Assembly (NCBI GenBank): GCA_965228475.1
Contig: OZ245817.1
Span: forward strand, 1,376,001-1,440,000
Reading direction: 5' to 3'
DNA: 64,000 nt
From: Myxococcota bacterium
GTDB lineage: Bacteria > Myxococcota_A > UBA9160 > JAFDDA01
Shown in pieces: positions 30,001-36,000 of this stretch; position 1 is the first letter of the stretch; the number at the start of each line of letters is the position of its first letter. Position numbers: made by a program.

Positions 30001-33000
30001 TTCATGGCGATCCTTCCCCGTGCGGAGCGGTGCGGAGCGATTCGATTCGCGGCCGCCAGCATATCCGATTGCGCCCTCGGGCCCGCCGCATCGCCCGCAG
30101 CGGCCTAGACCTCGCGCGAGCGGGCGAGGGCGGCCTTCAGGTCTTCCCAGACCTTGCGCCGGTTCTCCGGGGTGTACTGCCGGAGCAGGAACGCCGGGTG
30201 GAACGTCGGCATGAGCGGCGTGCCGCGGTAGTCCTGCCAGGTGCCGCGCAGCTTCGTGATGGCGACGTCGCGCCCGAGCAGGGTGCTCGTCGCGGGCTTG
30301 CCCAGCGAGACGATCACCTTCGGGCGGATCGCGGCGATCTGGCCGTCGAGGAAGCCGCGGCAGGTCGCGACCTCGTCGGCCAGGGGCGTGCGGTTCCCGG
30401 GCGGCCGACACTTCACGATGTTGCAGATGTAGACCGAGCTGCGCGGGATCTCGAGGCCCTTCTCGATCATCGACGTCAGGAGCTCGCCCGCCCGCCCGCA
30501 GAAGGGGATGCCGCGCTCGTCTTCGTTCTGGCCCGGGCCTTCGCCGATGAACAGCAGGTCCGCATCCGGGTTGCCGTCGCCGAAGACGATCTGCGTCCGT
30601 CCCTCGTGCAGGCGGCAGCGCGTGCAGTCGCCAATCTCGGCCCGCACGGCCTCGAGGCTCGCGGATCCGCCGCCGCTCGGAGCCGCCGGCGGCGACGGGG
30701 CGGGGGGCGCTTGGGTCGTAGCCTCCGCCCGCGGCTCGGCGGCCGGCGCTGCGGCACGAAGGGGCGGCTCGGCGGTGACTCCGGCGGCGGCCTGCTCCGC
30801 GTCGGTCTCCCAGACCTCGACGCCCTCCTCGGCCCACTCGGCGAGGGTCGCACGCGCGGCGCCGAGGGCGTCTCGCAGCTCCGGGTCCTGGGGGGTGGGC
30901 GGCATCGGGCGGAACGCCCCTAGCTCGCCGGGGGCGCGAAGGCGCGCTCGAGCATGCCGAGCTGGGCGCTGTCCGGAAGCGCCGGCGCTCGGGAGGCCGA
31001 GGTGTCCTTCGGCTTGCCCGTCCCCGGCTCGATCGTCCCGTGGCGCTGGATCTCGATCTTGTCGAGGACCTCGAACTCGAAGCCCGGGTCGTTCGCGTCG
31101 TCGTGGCAATCGCCGCAGACCTGGAGGATGGCGCAGGAGTCGCACTTGTCGCCGAGGGAGACGATGGTGCCGATCTTCTCCGCGCCCTCCGCCACGTGCT
31201 CGCTGCCCGGGCCGTGGCAGGATTCGCAGCCGACGCGCCCGAGATCCGCATGGGCGGCGAGGGTCGCGCCCTTCGGGAAGCCTCCGGTCTTGCCGAAGCC
31301 CGTCGTGTGGCAGGTGAGGCACTCGGCGTTGCCCGCCTCGCCCTTGGCTTCCAGGGTCTCCCCGGCCTTCGCATGGCCTCCGCTGGCCCAGGTCGCGTAC
31401 TCGGAGGGGTGGCAGCTCTGGCACGCATCCGAACCGACGTAGTCCGCGTCCACCGGCAGGATCGCGGCGCGGCGGGCGCCGAGCTCTTCGATGCGCGCGA
31501 GCTTCTGGTCGAGGGAGAGGCCGAGCACGTCGCGGTTGGCGGCGTGGGAGATCTTCGGGTGGAACGTCGCGAAGTCGAAGCCGAGAGAGTGCTTCTTGTC
31601 GTGGCAGGTCACGCACATCGGTTCGTAGCCGGCCTTCGTGTACTCCGGGGAGAGGTGCGGGCCGCCGCGGCCGTGGCAGGACTCGCAGCCGACGTCCTCG
31701 AAGCGCGCCGAGCCGTGGCCCTCGAAGCTGAAACCGCCCTTTTCCTCGTAGCCGACGACGTGGCAGCCGACGCACTCGGGGTTCCGGGATTCGCCGTGCT
31801 TCACGAGCGTGTCGTAGGCGTAGGCGTGCTTGGTGAACTCCCAGGTCGTGGTCTGCTCCTCGTGGCAGACCGCGCAGAAGTCGTTGCCGCTGTAGCCCGT
31901 GCGGTGGAGCAGCATCGGGACGGGTGCGCCGCCTTCCTTCGCGAGGCGCATCTGCCAGAGCGGCGGGTCGAGCTGGTCGTCCCAGCCCGAGCCGCGGTGC
32001 GCGATGCGCCCCTCGGCGTCGACGAGGACGAGGTCCGGGACGCCGCCGCTCACGCCGAAGGCGGTGCGCAGGGCTCCGCCCGGGTCCATCAGCACGGGGA
32101 AGAAGTCGAGCCCGTCTTCTTCGAGCTTCTCGCGCACGGCGTAGGCGCGGTCGAGGATCGAGACGCCGACGAGAACGGGCCGCTGCTCCTCCGGCAGCTT
32201 CGGCAGGGCCTCCTTCAGGAAGCGCATGGCGTGGTGGCAGTGCGGGCAGGTGTGCAGGAAGAAGATCACCATCACGGCCTGGCCGCGGTGGGCCGAGAGG
32301 CTGAAGGCCTTGCCGGCGAGGTCCGTGCCCGTGAGCTCGGGCGCCTTCGGGCGCTCGCCGAGGAGCGGCTGGGTCGGCGCGGGCGCGGCGGGCAACCGCA
32401 GCATGTCCCGGACCATGGCGTTGATGGCGTCGCCGGTGACGTCGCTGTCTTCCTGCCAGCCCGCGGTGCGCGTCACGTAACCTTCGTCGTCGACCGAAGC
32501 CAGCAGGACGGGGACCGGCGCGCGAAGCAGGCTCGCGATGCGGGCCGTCGAATCGTCGAGGATCGGGAAGTCGAGGCCCTTCTTCTCGGCGAACTCCTGG
32601 GCGACCGCGCGGCGCGAGCCGGTGGCGATGCCCAGGATCTCGAAGTTGTTTTTGGCCCGGAACTCGGAGACTTCGGCGAGGGCTTCGGCGGCCTTCCCGG
32701 CCACGCCGATCTCCGGGTTGAACATGAACAGCAGGTAGCGCTGGCCGAGCAGGTCCGACGCCTGGAGCTTCCGGTCGTCGAGGGTGATCCCGCCGAGGGC
32801 CGGCAGCGGCCTTTCGTGGGAGTGCCGCTTCGCCTTCTTCGAGTGCTCCGGCTTCTCTCGCGCGGCAGCGGCCTCGCCCGGTGCCGAAGCCTGGGCGACC
32901 TCCGTCACCCCCTCCGAAGCCGGCTGCGAAGCCTCCGCAGCCCCGCTCGTCTCTTCCCCCCCACCGCAGCCAACCGCCGCCAGCAGGACCCCCAACACCA

Positions 33001-36000
33001 CGAAATTTCGAAGATTCAGCACGGGGCCCAGCATAGCCAAGGAGCGGGAGAGTGACGGCGGCTGCGTTCAAGCAAGGAGGGCGTGAGGGCCGGGGTCGCC
33101 TTCAGCGAAGTAAAGCGCAGCCCGGAGCAACCAAGTGGAGTAAAGCAGCCCGTTCGCCCGGGCGAGCCATGAGCGGAAGGCGACCCCGGCCCTCACGCCC
33201 GGCGCTCTAGCGAAGCTTCTCCTTCAGCTCCGCCAAAGTCTCCTTCACCCACCCATTGTCCCGCTCATAAGCCAACGCCATCTTCAAATTCTGCTGCGCA
33301 CCCTTCCAGTCCTCGCGCGCCAGATCCTGGTTCGCGAGCGCGATGTAGCGCTTCCCGTTGGGTGTCGTCCCCTGGCGTTCGCTGCTGACCTGGCGGTCCG
33401 CCTGGGCGCCGCCTTCGACGAGGGCCAGGCGCCGCTCGCCCTCCCCGTCGAGCTGCTGGTCGTAGAGCTTCCGGCGGCGCGGGTCGCGCAGCACGGCGTA
33501 GGCCTCGCTCACGCGCTTCGCGATGCGCTCGGCCGAGCCCACCACCTCGGGCCCGTGCACGCGCAGCCGGTCCGGATGGAAGCGGCGCGCGACGGAGTGG
33601 TAGGCCGTCCGCACGGCGGCGGCGTTCGCCCGCCGCTCGACTTCGAGCAGCTGGTAGTAGTCGAGGTCCTCGACGATGTTGGCGAGGGCTCGAAGTTCTG
33701 CGGTGTTCACCGATGCCAAGGGGGACCTCAGGCCAGCTCGATGTCTTCGTCGTCTTCGTCGTCGGAGAGCAGGTCGGTTCCGACCGCCTCGAACAGGGAG
33801 TCCTTGCCCGCCGGTGCGTCGGCTTGCGTGGGTTCGGCTTGTGCGGGTTGGCTCGGAGCGGGCGAGACCGGCTCCGCCTCCAGGACGTCGTCCTGGCTCA
33901 GGGTGACCTCGCCGACGACCTCCACGGCCGAGACCTCGTTCCTGTCGTCCGAGGCCACGTCGATGTCGGGCAGTTCGATCTCGTCCTCGAGGGAGTCGAT
34001 CTCGAGCTCCGGCAGGTCGCCTTCGTCCACCTCGAGCTCGTCGAGATCGACGTCCGGAACCTGCGGGACCGCATCGGCCGCGACCGGCGCCTCGGCCTGG
34101 GGCTCCGGCGCGATGGGCGGCTCGGGTTCGGCCGGCTCCGCCGCAATGGGCGGCTCGGGCTCTTGGATCGCCGGCGGCGGCTCGTCCACCGGCTCATCGT
34201 CGGCCGCGGGCTCGGCAGCCGGGGGCTCGGCGTCGGCGACGGACGGCGCCGCGGCGGCGGCGACCGATGCGGCGGCACCCGCCACCGGGCCTTCGTTCGC
34301 CGGCATGGCCTGCTCTTCGCCCTTCGCGACGATCTCCGTCTTCACGCGCGCGGTCGGGTTCTCCGCGAGGATCGACTGGAGCTCCTCGTCCGAGAGGCCC
34401 GAGGAGAGCGTGATGCGCGTCGAGGCTTCCTGGCCGGTCTCCGGCTCGCGAGCCGTCACGTGGACGATGCCGTCGCTGTTGATCGCGAAGATCACCTGGA
34501 TCTCGACCTCGCCGCGGCGAGCCTTCGGGAAGCCCGAGAACTCGAACTGCCCGAGCAGCTCGTTGTCCTCGGCCTGCTTCTCCTCGCCCTGGTAGACGCG
34601 GATGACCACCTCTTCCTGGGCGTCCTGCACGGTCGTGAAGCTCCGCGCCTGTTCGATCGGCACGGGCGTGTTGCGTTCGATGATCGGTTCGCAGATGCCG
34701 CCGGCGACGCCCACCTGGAGCGAGAGCGGCGTGACGTCGAGCAGGAACGCGTTCTGCTGCGGCGCGACGAGCTCGCTGGCGTGGATCGCCGCGCCCATGG
34801 CCACCACCACGTCCGGGTCGACGTCGGTCTTGGGTTCGAGGCCGAAGTAGGTCTTCACCGCGTCGCGGATCATCGGGAGCCGCGTCGGCCCGCCGACGAG
34901 CACGATGCCGTCGAGCTCGCGGGCGACGATGCCGGCTTCCTGGAGCGCCTCGTCGGTCACCTTGAAGGTGCGCTGGATCAGGTCGTGGGTGAGCTTCGCG
35001 AAGTCGTTCGCGGTCAGCGTGCGCTCGAGGGCGATCGAGGTTCCGTCCTCGGCCGTGGCGATGTCCTCGATCCGGATCTGGACCTCTTCGTCGAGGGAGA
35101 GGGCCTTCTTGGCGTCCTCGGCGGCCTTCTTCAGGCGCTCGAAGGTCTGCTTGTCCTGGCGCAGGTTCTTCCCGTGCTCCTGGAGGAACTCGTCGGCCAG
35201 CAGGTCGATCAGCCGGTCGTCGAAGTCGTCGCCGCCGAGGAAGGTGTCGCCGGAGGTCGAGATCACCTCGAACACGTCCTCGCCGATCTCGAGGACGGAG
35301 ATGTCGAAGGTGCCGCCGCCGAGGTCCCAGACGGCGACCTTCTGCGAGAGGCCCTGGCCGAAGCCGTAGGCGAGCGCGGCCGCCGTCGGCTCGTTCAGGA
35401 TGCGCAGCACCTCGAGCCCGGCGATCTTGCCGGCGTCCTTGGTGGCCTGACGCTGGTTGTCGTTGAAGTAGGCGGGAACCGTGATCACCGCCTGGGTGAC
35501 TTCGTGGCCGAGCTGGGCTTCGGCGACGCTCTTCAGCTCGCGCAGGATCATCGCGGAGATCTCGGGCAGCGAGAGCACTTCCTCGCGCACCTGGACGCGC
35601 ACGCTGTGCTCCGGCCCCTCGACGATCTGGTACGGGCAGATGGCCTGGGCCTTCTTCACTTCTTCCGAGAAGAAGTACCGGCCGATCAGGCGCTTGGCCG
35701 AGGTGACCGTGGCTTCCGGATCGACGACGGCGTTGGCCTTGGCTTCGTTTCCGACCAGGACGGTGCCGTCCTCGCGAAAGGCCACGGCGCTCGCCATGAT
35801 GCTCTCGCCGTAGGCGTTCGCGAGCACCTCGACCTTGCCGTTTCGCAGGACCGCGACGGCCGAGTTGCTCGTCCCCAGATCGATTCCGATGGCGACTTCC
35901 GACATGAGAACCCTCCGGCCCCGTTATCGGTGGAACCCCTCGGTTTCTGGATGAGTTTCCGGGCCCGGGGGAGGGCCTGGGAGGCCCCTGGGGCGCGTTG

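Follow-up and report, generated by a model that had tools for sequence, protein, structure and literature searches.

A Myxococcota lipoprotein joining thioredoxin-fold domains to an octahaem cytochrome: a possible thiol-to-haem oxidase

The thioredoxin-fold proteins ResA, CcmG and TlpA mostly act as reductants, and domains of the ResA/CcmG type have a role in cytochrome c maturation. In ResA, an acidic residue three places beyond the second cysteine has a functional role. The CxHC type of active site is that of DsbA (CPHC) and PDI (CGHC), while peroxiredoxins carry the peroxidatic motif PxxxT/SxxC. Thiolates readily reduce ferric haem. Multihaem cytochromes with bis-His ligation frequently show low potentials. 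When a disulfide is reduced one electron at a time, the first step is very unfavourable unless a special cofactor takes part. Here, we describe a gene of a Myxococcota bacterium, located in a 64,000 nucleotide window (positions 1,376,001 to 1,440,000 of contig OZ245817.1), that fuses the two kinds of protein. The survey's finding had called this fusion unstudied, and our literature search likewise turned up no paper describing a thioredoxin-octahaem fusion. Our tentative reading is that the product is a lipid-anchored periplasmic thiol:haem oxidoreductase that runs as a thiol oxidase in place of DsbB or VKOR.

The gene (Table 1) was read from an ATG at 33034, and a database protein (P0002) is identical to the 704 aa product; starting instead from a TTG two codons ahead of it would lengthen the product to 706 aa. 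Pfam matches to AhpC-TSA (1.5e-25), Redoxin (3.9e-18) and Cytochrome_C554 (2.5e-24) each fall in two stretches. Together with the sequence and fold comparisons, they bear out the survey's description of a lipoprotein with two thioredoxin-fold domains and eight CxxCH motifs in two c554-like modules, and the N-terminus and the CPHC at residue 263 that it listed were reproduced. The lipidation site is conserved in 115/120 homologues. An AF2 model of the full-length protein had a pTM of 0.80, with pLDDT below 50 for residues 1-60, and column conservation in the tether averages only 0.32.

Table 1. Features of the fusion gene and its surroundings (positions in the window)
Feature	Position	Strand	Basis and remarks
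Family-4 uracil-DNA glycosylase (UDG) gene	30105..30905	-	TIGR00758 4.9e-55; 14 nt downstream of fusion gene
Whole fusion gene, 704 codons + stop	30920..33034	-	ORF reading; lipoprotein, two thioredoxin-fold domains and octahaem cytochrome
Tetrahaem module B, residues 528-672, CxxCH at 538, 572, 603, 640	31019..31453	-	VIA-align, Foldseek
Extra CxxC, C631-D-S-C634, six residues ahead of last haem motif	31133..31144	-	Alignment; candidate relay disulfide or haem-ligating Cys
Tetrahaem module A, residues 380-500, CxxCH at 387, 421, 450, 474	31535..31897	-	Pfam, motifs, phmmer
Thioredoxin-fold domain 2, residues 221-371, TlpA/ResA-like, with conserved C-terminal helix containing M362	31922..32374	-	phmmer, Foldseek, VIA-align
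Active-site motif C263-P-H-C266-H267	32234..32248	-	Homologue alignment
Thioredoxin-fold domain 1, residues 73-215, TlpA/ResA-like, no cysteine	32390..32818	-	VIA-align
Low-complexity tether, residues 24-72, predicted disordered	32819..32965	-	pLDDT and conservation
Signal peptide with lipobox, residues 1-23, ...LLAAVGC	32966..33034	-	Sequence; predicted lipidation site Cys23
Intergenic region upstream of fusion gene, with long near-perfect hairpin	33035..33206	-	Folding
J-domain protein gene, 170 aa	33207-33719	-	
Hsp70 gene, 725 aa	33728-35905	-	

Domain 1 aligned with ResA 2f9s_A over 134 residues (VIA-align Z 20.5, rmsd 1.7; model residues 73-214). NPE occupies the CxxC position, and in the homologue alignment F105 and P107 are near-invariant and cysteine is absent, in agreement with the survey's remark that the first domain lacks CxxC. 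Matches of this domain to Bcp/PrxQ are weak. For domain 2, searches against the PDB returned ResA 4nmu (phmmer, 3.9e-9), Foldseek ranked ResA variants highest, and VIA-align gave 3fkf (Z 16.6) and TlpA 1jfu (Z 14.8); ResA, CcmG and TlpA are its nearest folds. M362 is kept in 120/120 homologues. As domain 1 has no cysteine and neither the sequence nor the homologue alignment of domain 2 contains PxxxT/SxxC, the peroxide-reducing site proposed in the survey is unlikely. The best 119 homologues are named only 'peroxiredoxin', 'redoxin domain-containing' or 'multiheme c-type cytochrome', and the first of these names reflects how broad Pfam AhpC-TSA is.

In domain 2, C263, H265, C266 and H267 are each conserved in 120/120 close homologues, and CPHCH recurs in 4/4 sister-family loci. 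This is formally a ninth CxxCH, a point missing from the survey. CxHC is found in 33/44 diverse representatives and in 19/19 loci outside the order (short-form loci, 15/15), His267 in only 7/44; going by these alignments, the final His267 is specific to this class, and distant relatives retain CxHC only. In this class the motif might itself be a covalent haem site, which would make the domain a haem-binding thioredoxin fold and no dithiol catalyst: the chain is still unfolded when it is exported past a haem lyase system, for which the genome has three Cytochrom_C_asm genes. We consider this very improbable, as His267 is missing from 37/44 diverse representatives and 15/15 short-form loci, which have eight CxxCH and not nine, and haem thioethers would end the CxxC chemistry kept in the rest of the family. 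The active site of E. coli DsbC, which is not known to be a haem protein, also reads CxxCH.

All eight haem motifs lie exactly where the survey had placed them, and none of 20,000 shufflings of residues 381-660 produced more than two CxxCH. Module A matched cytochrome c554 (1bvb; query 382-469, phmmer), and its haem motifs are invariant in 40/40 sequences. Module B aligned with 1bvb_A over 133 residues (VIA-align Z 11.0, rmsd 3.1, 30% identity; model residues 157-301) and matched 1ft6 in Foldseek (E 2e-4). The C631-D-S-C634 pair, the tenth CxxC of the protein, is also missing from the survey. C634 is invariant in 40/40 sequences and C631 is conserved in at least 90%; among 44 representatives the site is CxxC in 37 and retains the second Cys alone in six, and a profile alignment places it with the 'CGQC' of OcwA 6i5b.

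Of 8000 candidates scored in a homologue search, 947 proteins had E<=1e-5. The best 119 others are 542-812 aa long and share 44-78% identity with the query across 77-99% of its length, so that the sizes, identities, coverage and source names given in the survey were recovered. Matches spanning domain 2 and the octahaem part, counted by hand as rows of the phylum-sample search, are present in 48/48 genomes of the order, 9/10 of the sister family and 34 further genomes. The description 'widespread' has to be narrowed, as named sources and Atlas clusters are almost only Myxococcota. The fusion of a single CxxC thioredoxin fold to the octahaem module persists from 78% to about 30% identity, and the linker (residues 353-384) is among the best-conserved stretches (0.73). 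From comparison of these sequences, retention across phylum-level divergence argues for functional haem-dithiol coupling. When domain 2 and the cytochrome were split into two chains and modelled with four haems, ipSAE was 0.57 (best control 0.02), the runs had 72% or more of their contacts in common and partner pLDDT was at least 86. The tool itself rates this score as weak support: its mark is reached by 116/157 solved complexes and 2/215 mismatches, and with a score of 0.60 or less by only 18 of the 157 complexes and by both mismatches. A haem-dithiol link within the fusion protein is plausible.

Alternatively, no electrons may be exchanged, the thioredoxin domain being a cis-acting ResA/CcmG for the eight CxxCH of its own chain or a purely structural fusion. 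The fold matches are to exactly these maturation proteins, and the octahaem module lacks an aligned thioredoxin CxxC in 19/150 representatives, some of them fragments. However, a maturation aid needs reducing power, for which a reducing motif would suit better than CxHC. Only four proteins in the genome have at least five CxxCH and a CcdA-TlpA pair is encoded separately. The motif, linker and C634 have also stayed invariant through deep divergence, as would be expected if the parts act together in catalysis. We regard this explanation as improbable.

The neighbours reported in the survey, all on one strand, were confirmed by profile matches. The UDG gene is probably co-transcribed with the fusion gene; a downstream UDG is also present at 18 of 19 further loci sampled from the order, the 19th stopping at a contig end, and at 3/4 sister-family loci. 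DnaJ is upstream in 8/19. The 172 nt upstream region has an MFE of -95.6 kcal/mol, and its hairpin arm is unique in the genome at both 20 and 24 nt. The UDG, DnaJ and Hsp70 neighbours are uninformative on envelope redox.

Another possibility is that the substrates are small sulfur or selenium compounds or other inorganic molecules, for example polysulfide, thiosulfate/tetrathionate or selenite. The CxxC pair, with C634 next to a haem, would then reduce or oxidise them in the manner of MccSep, TsdA or SoxAX. An invariant extra Cys adjoins a haem motif, and family-wide the distal His is invariant at only six positions for eight haems, so two haems may have unusual ligation. The protein is distantly similar to MccA and MccSep, and the same c554-like module ends the proteins of NF041198, a UshA-like CxU selenoprotein family (PMC13188914, PMC9312934). 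Against this, the eight invariant non-motif His of the long form (403, 413, 460, 482, 497, 554, 613 and 665) suffice for eight bis-His haems, and no sulfur-metabolism genes were found near the gene in its own locus or the sister-family loci. The gene is also single-copy and universal in the order, with housekeeping-type neighbours, and variants in which TPR repeats precede the same core (P0144) suggest protein substrates or partners. Small-substrate chemistry thus has a low probability.

The genome, a single 5.0 Mb contig rated 96% complete, yielded no DsbB and no VKOR when searched. Two genes for DSBA-domain proteins are present, and neither was found to have a membrane partner beside it. There are also three haem-copper oxidase subunit I genes and two DsbD_TM/CcdA genes, with a TlpA-like lipoprotein gene directly after one of these two. 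With the CcdA genes and this lipoprotein a reducing route already exists, and the survey's proposal of a route that needs no DsbD/CcdA has no rationale here. Among 334 exported proteins, picked by our own crude signal-peptide rule, even Cys numbers outweigh odd (177 versus 157; cytoplasmic-like, 707 versus 913; Fisher p 0.002). This modest lean (177/334 against one half alone, p 0.30) suggests that envelope disulfides are made. All 48 genomes of the order examined have the fusion gene, nine have DsbB, seven VKOR and 33 neither; in a count over 61 genomes of the order, 60 have DsbA-like genes. VKOR is common elsewhere in the phylum (209/301 genomes overall) and present throughout the short-form families f16 (6/6), f20 (10/10) and f29 (18/18); therefore, the fusion family cannot simply be read as a replacement for VKOR throughout. 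Some families without the fusion also mostly lack both enzymes (f15: fusion 0/26, VKOR 11/26, DsbB 0/26), and the link between fusion and missing DsbB/VKOR, as one evolutionary event in one class, has no statistical weight.

The survey had proposed a haem-to-dithiol reductase. On this reading, respiratory or low-potential electrons would pass through the eight haems to the CPHC disulfide and, with no need of CcdA/DsbD, on to envelope targets, which might be apocytochromes, methionine sulfoxide reductases, peroxidases or oxidised cysteines. The architecture behind that proposal was confirmed and is strongly conserved, and the coupling of haem and dithiol is plausible. The haem-to-thiol direction fared less well: CxHC is the oxidising type, Ala replaces the acidic residue in the phmmer alignment with ResA, DsbB and VKOR are missing, two CcdA genes and TlpA-like partners are already present, the first one-electron step is chemically hard, and none of 39 loci examined has a linked target gene. 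In its favour are a domain nearest to ResA, CcmG and TlpA in sequence and fold and the low potentials often seen in bis-His multihaem cytochromes. MccSep (bioRxiv 10.1101/2025.11.18.688581) is a precedent for haem-dependent S-S cleavage, with a Cys-ligated haem and Sec. Module B shows weak similarity to the haem region of MccSep (E 6.8e-5), and the invariant C634 could be a haem-ligating Cys of that kind. On balance we judge a reductase unlikely and favour, tentatively, a thiol-to-haem oxidase.

As such an oxidase, domain 2 would swap disulfides with cysteine pairs of envelope proteins, most likely the two orphan DsbA-like proteins or else substrates directly. Electrons would pass, possibly via C634 near haem 8, into the two tetrahaem modules and onward to the aerobic respiratory chain, with the three haem-copper oxidases as sink; Cys-less domain 1 may have no catalytic part and, as the b domains of PDI do, serve as a scaffold or bind substrates. 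Counting against the oxidase are the lack of a flavin or quinone site for two-electron/one-electron conversion, the mostly reductive roles of its nearest folds, and the coexistence of DsbB or VKOR with the gene in 15/48 genomes of the order. If correct, the reading provides a route by which cysteine pairs hand their electrons to the respiratory chain in a bacterium without DsbB or VKOR, and the comparison is with the Mia40-Erv1 relay of mitochondria, where disulfide-derived electrons reach cytochrome c.

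The minus-strand reading frame for the CPHC-octahaem lipoprotein (see the table) has the architecture that the survey's finding ascribed to it. Its N-terminus ends in the lipobox sequence ...LLAAVGC, with Cys23 at the predicted lipidation site of a bacterial lipoprotein signal peptide, AhpC-TSA and Redoxin each match twice, as does Cytochrome_C554, and eight CxxCH motifs begin at residues 387, 421, 450, 474, 538, 572, 603 and 640. The survey's homologue statistics were also reproduced. Cys23 is conserved in 115/120 homologues, and when residues 381–660 were shuffled 20,000 times no shuffle contained more than two CxxCH motifs. 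A full-length AF2 model built with 118 sequences has a pLDDT of 83.4 and a pTM of 0.80, with residues 1–60 disordered.

Features of the CPHC-octahaem lipoprotein, of its surroundings in the window and of one further gene with eight CxxCH in the source genome
Feature	Position	Strand	Length
CPHC-octahaem lipoprotein gene (g01282)	window 30920–33034	−	704 aa
Thioredoxin-fold domain 1	residues 73–215		
Thioredoxin-fold domain 2	residues 221–371		
Cytochrome module A	residues 380–500		
Cytochrome module B	residues 528–672		
Family-4 uracil-DNA glycosylase (UDG) gene	window 30105–30905	−	
J-domain protein gene (J domain only)	window 33207–33719	−	170 aa
Hsp70 gene	window 33728–35905	−	725 aa
J-domain/Hsp70 gene pair	window 33207–35905	−	
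Hairpin between J-domain and cytochrome genes	window 33035–33206	−	172 nt
KOW/ribosomal L24-like match	window 27119–27427	+	
High-GC3 reading frame	window 25445–27298	−	
Protein with eight CxxCH, outside the window	G000:C1:3681855–3684437	+	860 aa

Both thioredoxin-fold domains are of the TlpA/ResA type. In the model, domain 1 aligns with 2f9s over 134 residues (VIA-align Z 20.5, rmsd 1.7); it contains no Cys and has F-N-P-E where catalytic members of the TlpA-like fold have CxxC. Domain 2 has the same fold and the active-site motif C263-P-H-C266-H267. Pfam AhpC-TSA, Redoxin and Thioredoxin_8 match its residues 230–351, phmmer against the PDB found ResA (4nmu, E 3.9e-9), the top Foldseek matches are ResA variants, and VIA-align gave Z 16.6 for 3fkf and 14.8 for TlpA (1jfu). 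The CxxC lies at the N-terminus of helix 1 (264–279 in the model), and a loop Pro, P333, is present in 120/120 homologues. The structural matches listed for the thioredoxin domains are to TlpA-like and peroxiredoxin-type folds, with no DsbA-family fold among them.

A peroxiredoxin of the AhpC/TSA or Bcp/PrxQ kind was considered and rejected because the PxxxT/SxxC motif, which holds the peroxidatic Cys of peroxiredoxins, is absent. Domain 1 is Cys-free, and in the FFLHTCPHC stretch of domain 2 a Thr immediately precedes the first Cys, with no Pro four residues before it; the NCBIfam Bcp model gives 35.5 bits, its cut-off being 140. The catalytic domain belongs to the TlpA-like fold family and carries a DsbA-type motif; it is neither a peroxiredoxin nor a DsbA.

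Conservation was assessed in a close set of 120 homologues (44–78% identity) and in 40 sequences aligned more widely, down to 30% identity. C263, H265, C266, H267, M362 and all eight CxxCH motifs are invariant in the close set, both Cys of the thioredoxin motif being present in 120/120. The motif reads CPHC, the active site of DsbA, in 116/120 and CSHC in 4/120. What the whole family retains is CxHC, seen as CPHC in 23, CSHC in six, CGHC in three and CWHC in one of 44 diverse representatives, and in 19/19 loci outside the order. Three residues beyond the second Cys, domain 2 has Ala, Leu or Thr, and ResA has Glu. Reductants fed by CcdA or DsbD are marked by a reducing-type dipeptide and by an acidic residue after the CxxC, and the CPHC-H motif has neither.

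His267 formally turns the thioredoxin motif into a ninth CxxCH. It is confined to the class, being present in 4/4 loci of the sister family and missing from 15/15 loci of the short form (domain 2 plus octahaem part, from other orders) and from 37/44 diverse representatives. A ninth haem on CPHCH is unlikely because this motif was not found outside the class, and the sequences that lack His267 carry eight CxxCH.

Folded alone, the cytochrome part gave a pLDDT of 82 and a pTM of 0.64. Module B of the model superposes on the entire cytochrome c554 (1bvb; Z 11.0, rmsd 3.1, 133 residues, 30% identity) and module A resembles c554 at the sequence level, so the haem wire consists of two c554-like tetrahaem modules. 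Eight further His (403, 413, 460, 482, 497, 554, 613 and 665) are invariant in the close set (H665 in 119/120) and would be enough to give the long form eight bis-His haems. The eight CxxCH and six of these distal His (403, 460, 482, 497, 554 and 613) are still invariant in the 40 wider sequences, as is C634. This Cys belongs to a further pair, C631-x-x-C634, that is invariant in the 120 homologues and lies six residues ahead of the last haem motif; at least 90% of the wider sequences have C631. From the motif at 603 to C631 is 28 residues, and from that at 450 to that at 474 is 24. By this spacing and by alignment with the CGQC of OcwA (6i5b), the pair is a candidate counterpart of a lost haem motif.

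Domain 2 and the cytochrome part with four haems, folded as separate chains, reached an ipSAE of 0.57 (best control 0.02), which counts as weak support for contact between them. In calibration, the ipSAE mark was reached by 116/157 solved complexes and 2/215 mismatches, and at values of no more than 0.60 by 18/157 complexes and both mismatches. Contacts agreed to at least 72% between folding runs, with a partner pLDDT of at least 86. When the whole model and the cytochrome model were compared with solved chains (Foldseek, VIA-align), only single-domain matches were returned and none spanned the thioredoxin and haem parts; this is no evidence that the arrangement is new.

The neighbours reported by the survey were confirmed, with the UDG gene 14 nt downstream and the J-domain and Hsp70 genes upstream. 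UDG is downstream in 18/19 loci of the order and 3/4 loci of the sister family, where the linkage persists at 40% identity, and the J-domain/Hsp70 pair, or DnaJ, precedes the cytochrome gene in 8/19 loci of the order. The first ~86 residues of the UDG frame are Pro/Ala-rich and unaligned in relatives, whose matches begin at residue 87; translation may really start further in. The Hsp70 scores 636.7 bits, just below the DnaK equivalog cut-off of 648, and about 200 of its C-terminal residues are unmatched. The gap between the J-domain and cytochrome genes is predicted to fold into a long, near-perfect hairpin (stem about 28 bp, loop about 70 nt, MFE −95.6 kcal/mol). At 20 and 24 nt, the sequence of its arm has no second copy in the genome. 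Termination, attenuation or RNA processing are possible roles for it. Elsewhere in the window, the KOW/L24-like match is at the end of a long plus-strand frame that overlaps the high-GC3 minus-strand frame, and may mark a small L24-like gene apart from the usual ribosomal cluster.

Distribution was examined in a sample of 301 genomes across the phylum. The source genome and the 47 others of its order all have the full-length form (48/48), as do 9/10 genomes of a sister family in the same class (40–43% identity). The short form, which corresponds to query residues ~250–656 and has about 450–500 aa and a Sec signal peptide, was counted from the matches in 34 further genomes. Both the named sources and the Atlas clusters, which have 84, 460 and 199 members, indicate Myxococcota. 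An RGW motif right after the signal peptide is common to the short forms, and at the short-form loci L027–L041 the gene encodes ~470 aa, often with an acyltransferase gene upstream and a convergent DinG-like helicase gene.

In 10/16 short-form loci the gene immediately follows one for a large membrane protein (770–1040 aa) from either of two families with no relation to each other; the ends mostly overlap in our own gene calls, and the pairs were treated as translationally coupled. These proteins match no Pfam or NCBIfam family and give weak GH127-like or glycosyltransferase-like hints. They were discarded as redox partners, the two families being unrelated to each other and to any known family and having no conserved Cys. 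Two such membrane proteins used to query the source genome found no homologue.

Other architectures were seen. In homologue P0144 (1082 aa) TPR repeats precede a ResA-like domain and then the octahaem part, and P0157 (834 aa) has an N-terminal extension of ~390 aa ahead of its ResA-like domain. A separate Atlas cluster of 141 proteins of ~530 aa, mostly from Myxococcota, joins AhpC-TSA to Paired_CXXCH_1 or Cytochrom_c3_2; because AhpC-TSA is thus also joined to a different multihaem type, thioredoxin–multihaem fusions may have arisen more than once. By crude gene calls the source genome encodes only four proteins with at least five CxxCH, among them the 860 aa protein listed in the table.

The survey's finding had electrons running from the haems to the dithiol by a route that needs neither CcdA nor DsbD. 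The source genome, a single 5.0-Mb contig rated 96% complete, speaks against that: it has two DsbD_TM/CcdA genes, one of them directly before a gene for a TlpA-like lipoprotein, and we conclude that its reducing branch is already served. Its oxidising branch has a gap. It encodes two proteins that match the DSBA domain and has three haem-copper oxidase genes, no DsbB and no VKOR was found in this 96% complete sequence, and a search beside the DsbA-like genes found no membrane oxidase. Searches of 48 genomes from the order found DsbB in nine, VKOR in seven and neither in 33, and DsbA-like genes are in 60/61 genomes of the order. VKOR is the rule in the rest of the phylum (209/301 overall).

DsbA and PDI, which are oxidants, have the CxHC motif, and ferric haem oxidises thiols easily, whereas reducing a disulfide by one electron is difficult. 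Exported proteins of the source genome, selected with a crude signal-peptide rule of our own, have an even number of Cys in 177 cases and an odd number in 157, versus 707 and 913 for cytoplasmic-like proteins, a modest bias (Fisher p 0.002). Because of the gene content (CcdA present, DsbB and VKOR not found), the CxHC motif, the replacement of the ResA-type acidic residue by Ala, the haem chemistry and the Cys parity, we tentatively rank first a thiol-to-haem oxidase substituting for DsbB or VKOR. The haem-to-thiol reductase ranks second and appears unlikely. Several observations count against an oxidase: the gene-content pattern amounts to a single evolutionary event; DsbB or VKOR accompanies the CPHC-octahaem gene in 15/48 genomes of the order; every family with the short form has VKOR; and one family of the sample (f15) is without the fusion or DsbB and has VKOR in only 11/26 genomes.

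As an oxidase, the DsbA-type CPHC thioredoxin fold would take electrons from cysteine pairs in the envelope and pass them, via a conserved cysteine, straight into the eight-haem wire and then to oxidases. No flavin or quinone would take part, the haems being the acceptor in place of the quinone. The broader proposal is more tentative still, and we hold it to be doubtful: a thiol:cytochrome oxidase that works without flavin or quinone would add a third kind to the disulfide-generating machines of bacteria, and would take the place of DsbB and VKOR throughout one class of Myxococcota.

Bacterial envelope disulfide formation is known to proceed via DsbB or VKOR and quinones, and we know of no reoxidant for the many bacteria that have DsbA-like proteins and neither of these oxidases. 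The presence of the CPHC-octahaem lipoprotein throughout an order that has DsbA-like genes almost without exception, and neither DsbB nor VKOR in most genomes, bears on this missing-oxidase question. A full-text literature search, judged mostly at the level of search results, found no description of a thioredoxin/TlpA–multihaem fusion. If cysteine pairs do couple to haems, in either direction, this would be chemistry not yet demonstrated for the thioredoxin fold, namely a dithiol/disulfide couple linked to c-type haem that involves no flavin, quinone or Fe-S cluster. In that case a single recombinant protein would allow a direct test of the missing-oxidase question, and the database label 'peroxiredoxin' on the listed homologues would be corrected. 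The function is testable and potentially important.

Among haem proteins, the one that each cytochrome half resembles is the tetrahaem c554 from Nitrosomonas europaea (1bvb, 1ft5, 1ft6), which serves hydroxylamine oxidation. Four CxxCH and the c554 fold are present, with E-values of 1.1e-19 for the profile and 2.5e-24 for Pfam Cytochrome_C554. The CPHC-octahaem lipoprotein differs in having two modules in tandem, the thioredoxin fusion and one CxxC more, ahead of the final haem motif, and it scores 73.1 bits with the NCBIfam Cyt554 equivalog NF043010, below the cut-off of 400.

The best NCBIfam match is NF041198, a UshA-like selenoprotein model (2.3e-58, 198 bits, below the cut-off of 275), with its best stretch confined to profile positions 393–519 of 519. 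A c554-like module of this kind, which both A and B match, makes up the final ~120 positions of that model, and tables in two papers show that NF041198, too, combines haems with a Cys/Sec redox motif, CxU (PMC13188914, PMC9312934). Its UshA-like head is missing here, and the thioredoxin domains are missing there.

MccSep (9wt8) is the nearest mechanistic precedent. It is described as a haem enzyme that cleaves S–S bonds with a haem-ligating Cys and a Sec (10.1101/2025.11.18.688581). MccSep, TsdA and SoxAX are likewise multihaem c-type proteins in which a Cys beside or on the haem makes or breaks S–S bonds, and the invariant C634 could be analogous to the haem-side Cys of MccSep-type enzymes. 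Similarity to MccSep is weak and in the haem region (E 6.8e-5), the aligned stretch (41–143) excludes its catalytic C239 and U325, there is no selenocysteine here, and a thioredoxin fold is absent from these enzymes.

Both thioredoxin domains share their fold with the TlpA-like proteins ResA, CcmG/DsbE, TlpA, Mtb DsbE/DsbF and SdbA (Z 15–17 for domain 2). Pro333 aligns with the loop Pro ('LP') of ResA, the CxxC of domain 2 starts helix 1, and the lipoprotein is predicted to be membrane-tethered and periplasmic, as are many members. Known TlpA-like proteins are stand-alone proteins of about 140–190 aa with motifs such as CEPC, CPTC and CVPC, which take up or pass on electrons through disulfide exchange with CcdA/DsbD or with substrates, whereas the CPHC(H) domain shares its chain with eight haems and a Cys-less copy of its own fold.

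With the DsbA–DsbB and DsbA–VKOR pathways it shares the CPHC site and the proposed task of moving electrons from envelope cysteine pairs to the respiratory chain. Unlike DsbA, it has no helical insertion, and Pfam DSBA and Thioredoxin_4 gave no match to it at E ≤ 0.01, although the two DSBA-domain proteins of the same genome do match. A quinone-binding membrane protein is also absent, the proposed acceptor being haem instead of quinone. In mitochondria, the Mia40–Erv1/ALR relay sends the electrons of disulfide formation to a c-type haem and on to cytochrome oxidase, Erv1 using FAD for the step from two electrons to one and the components being separate partner proteins. The CPHC-octahaem lipoprotein has no flavin domain, holds its CxxC and haems in one chain and shares no homology with that relay, but as an oxidase it would work alike, and Mia40–Erv1–cytochrome c is its nearest functional analogue.
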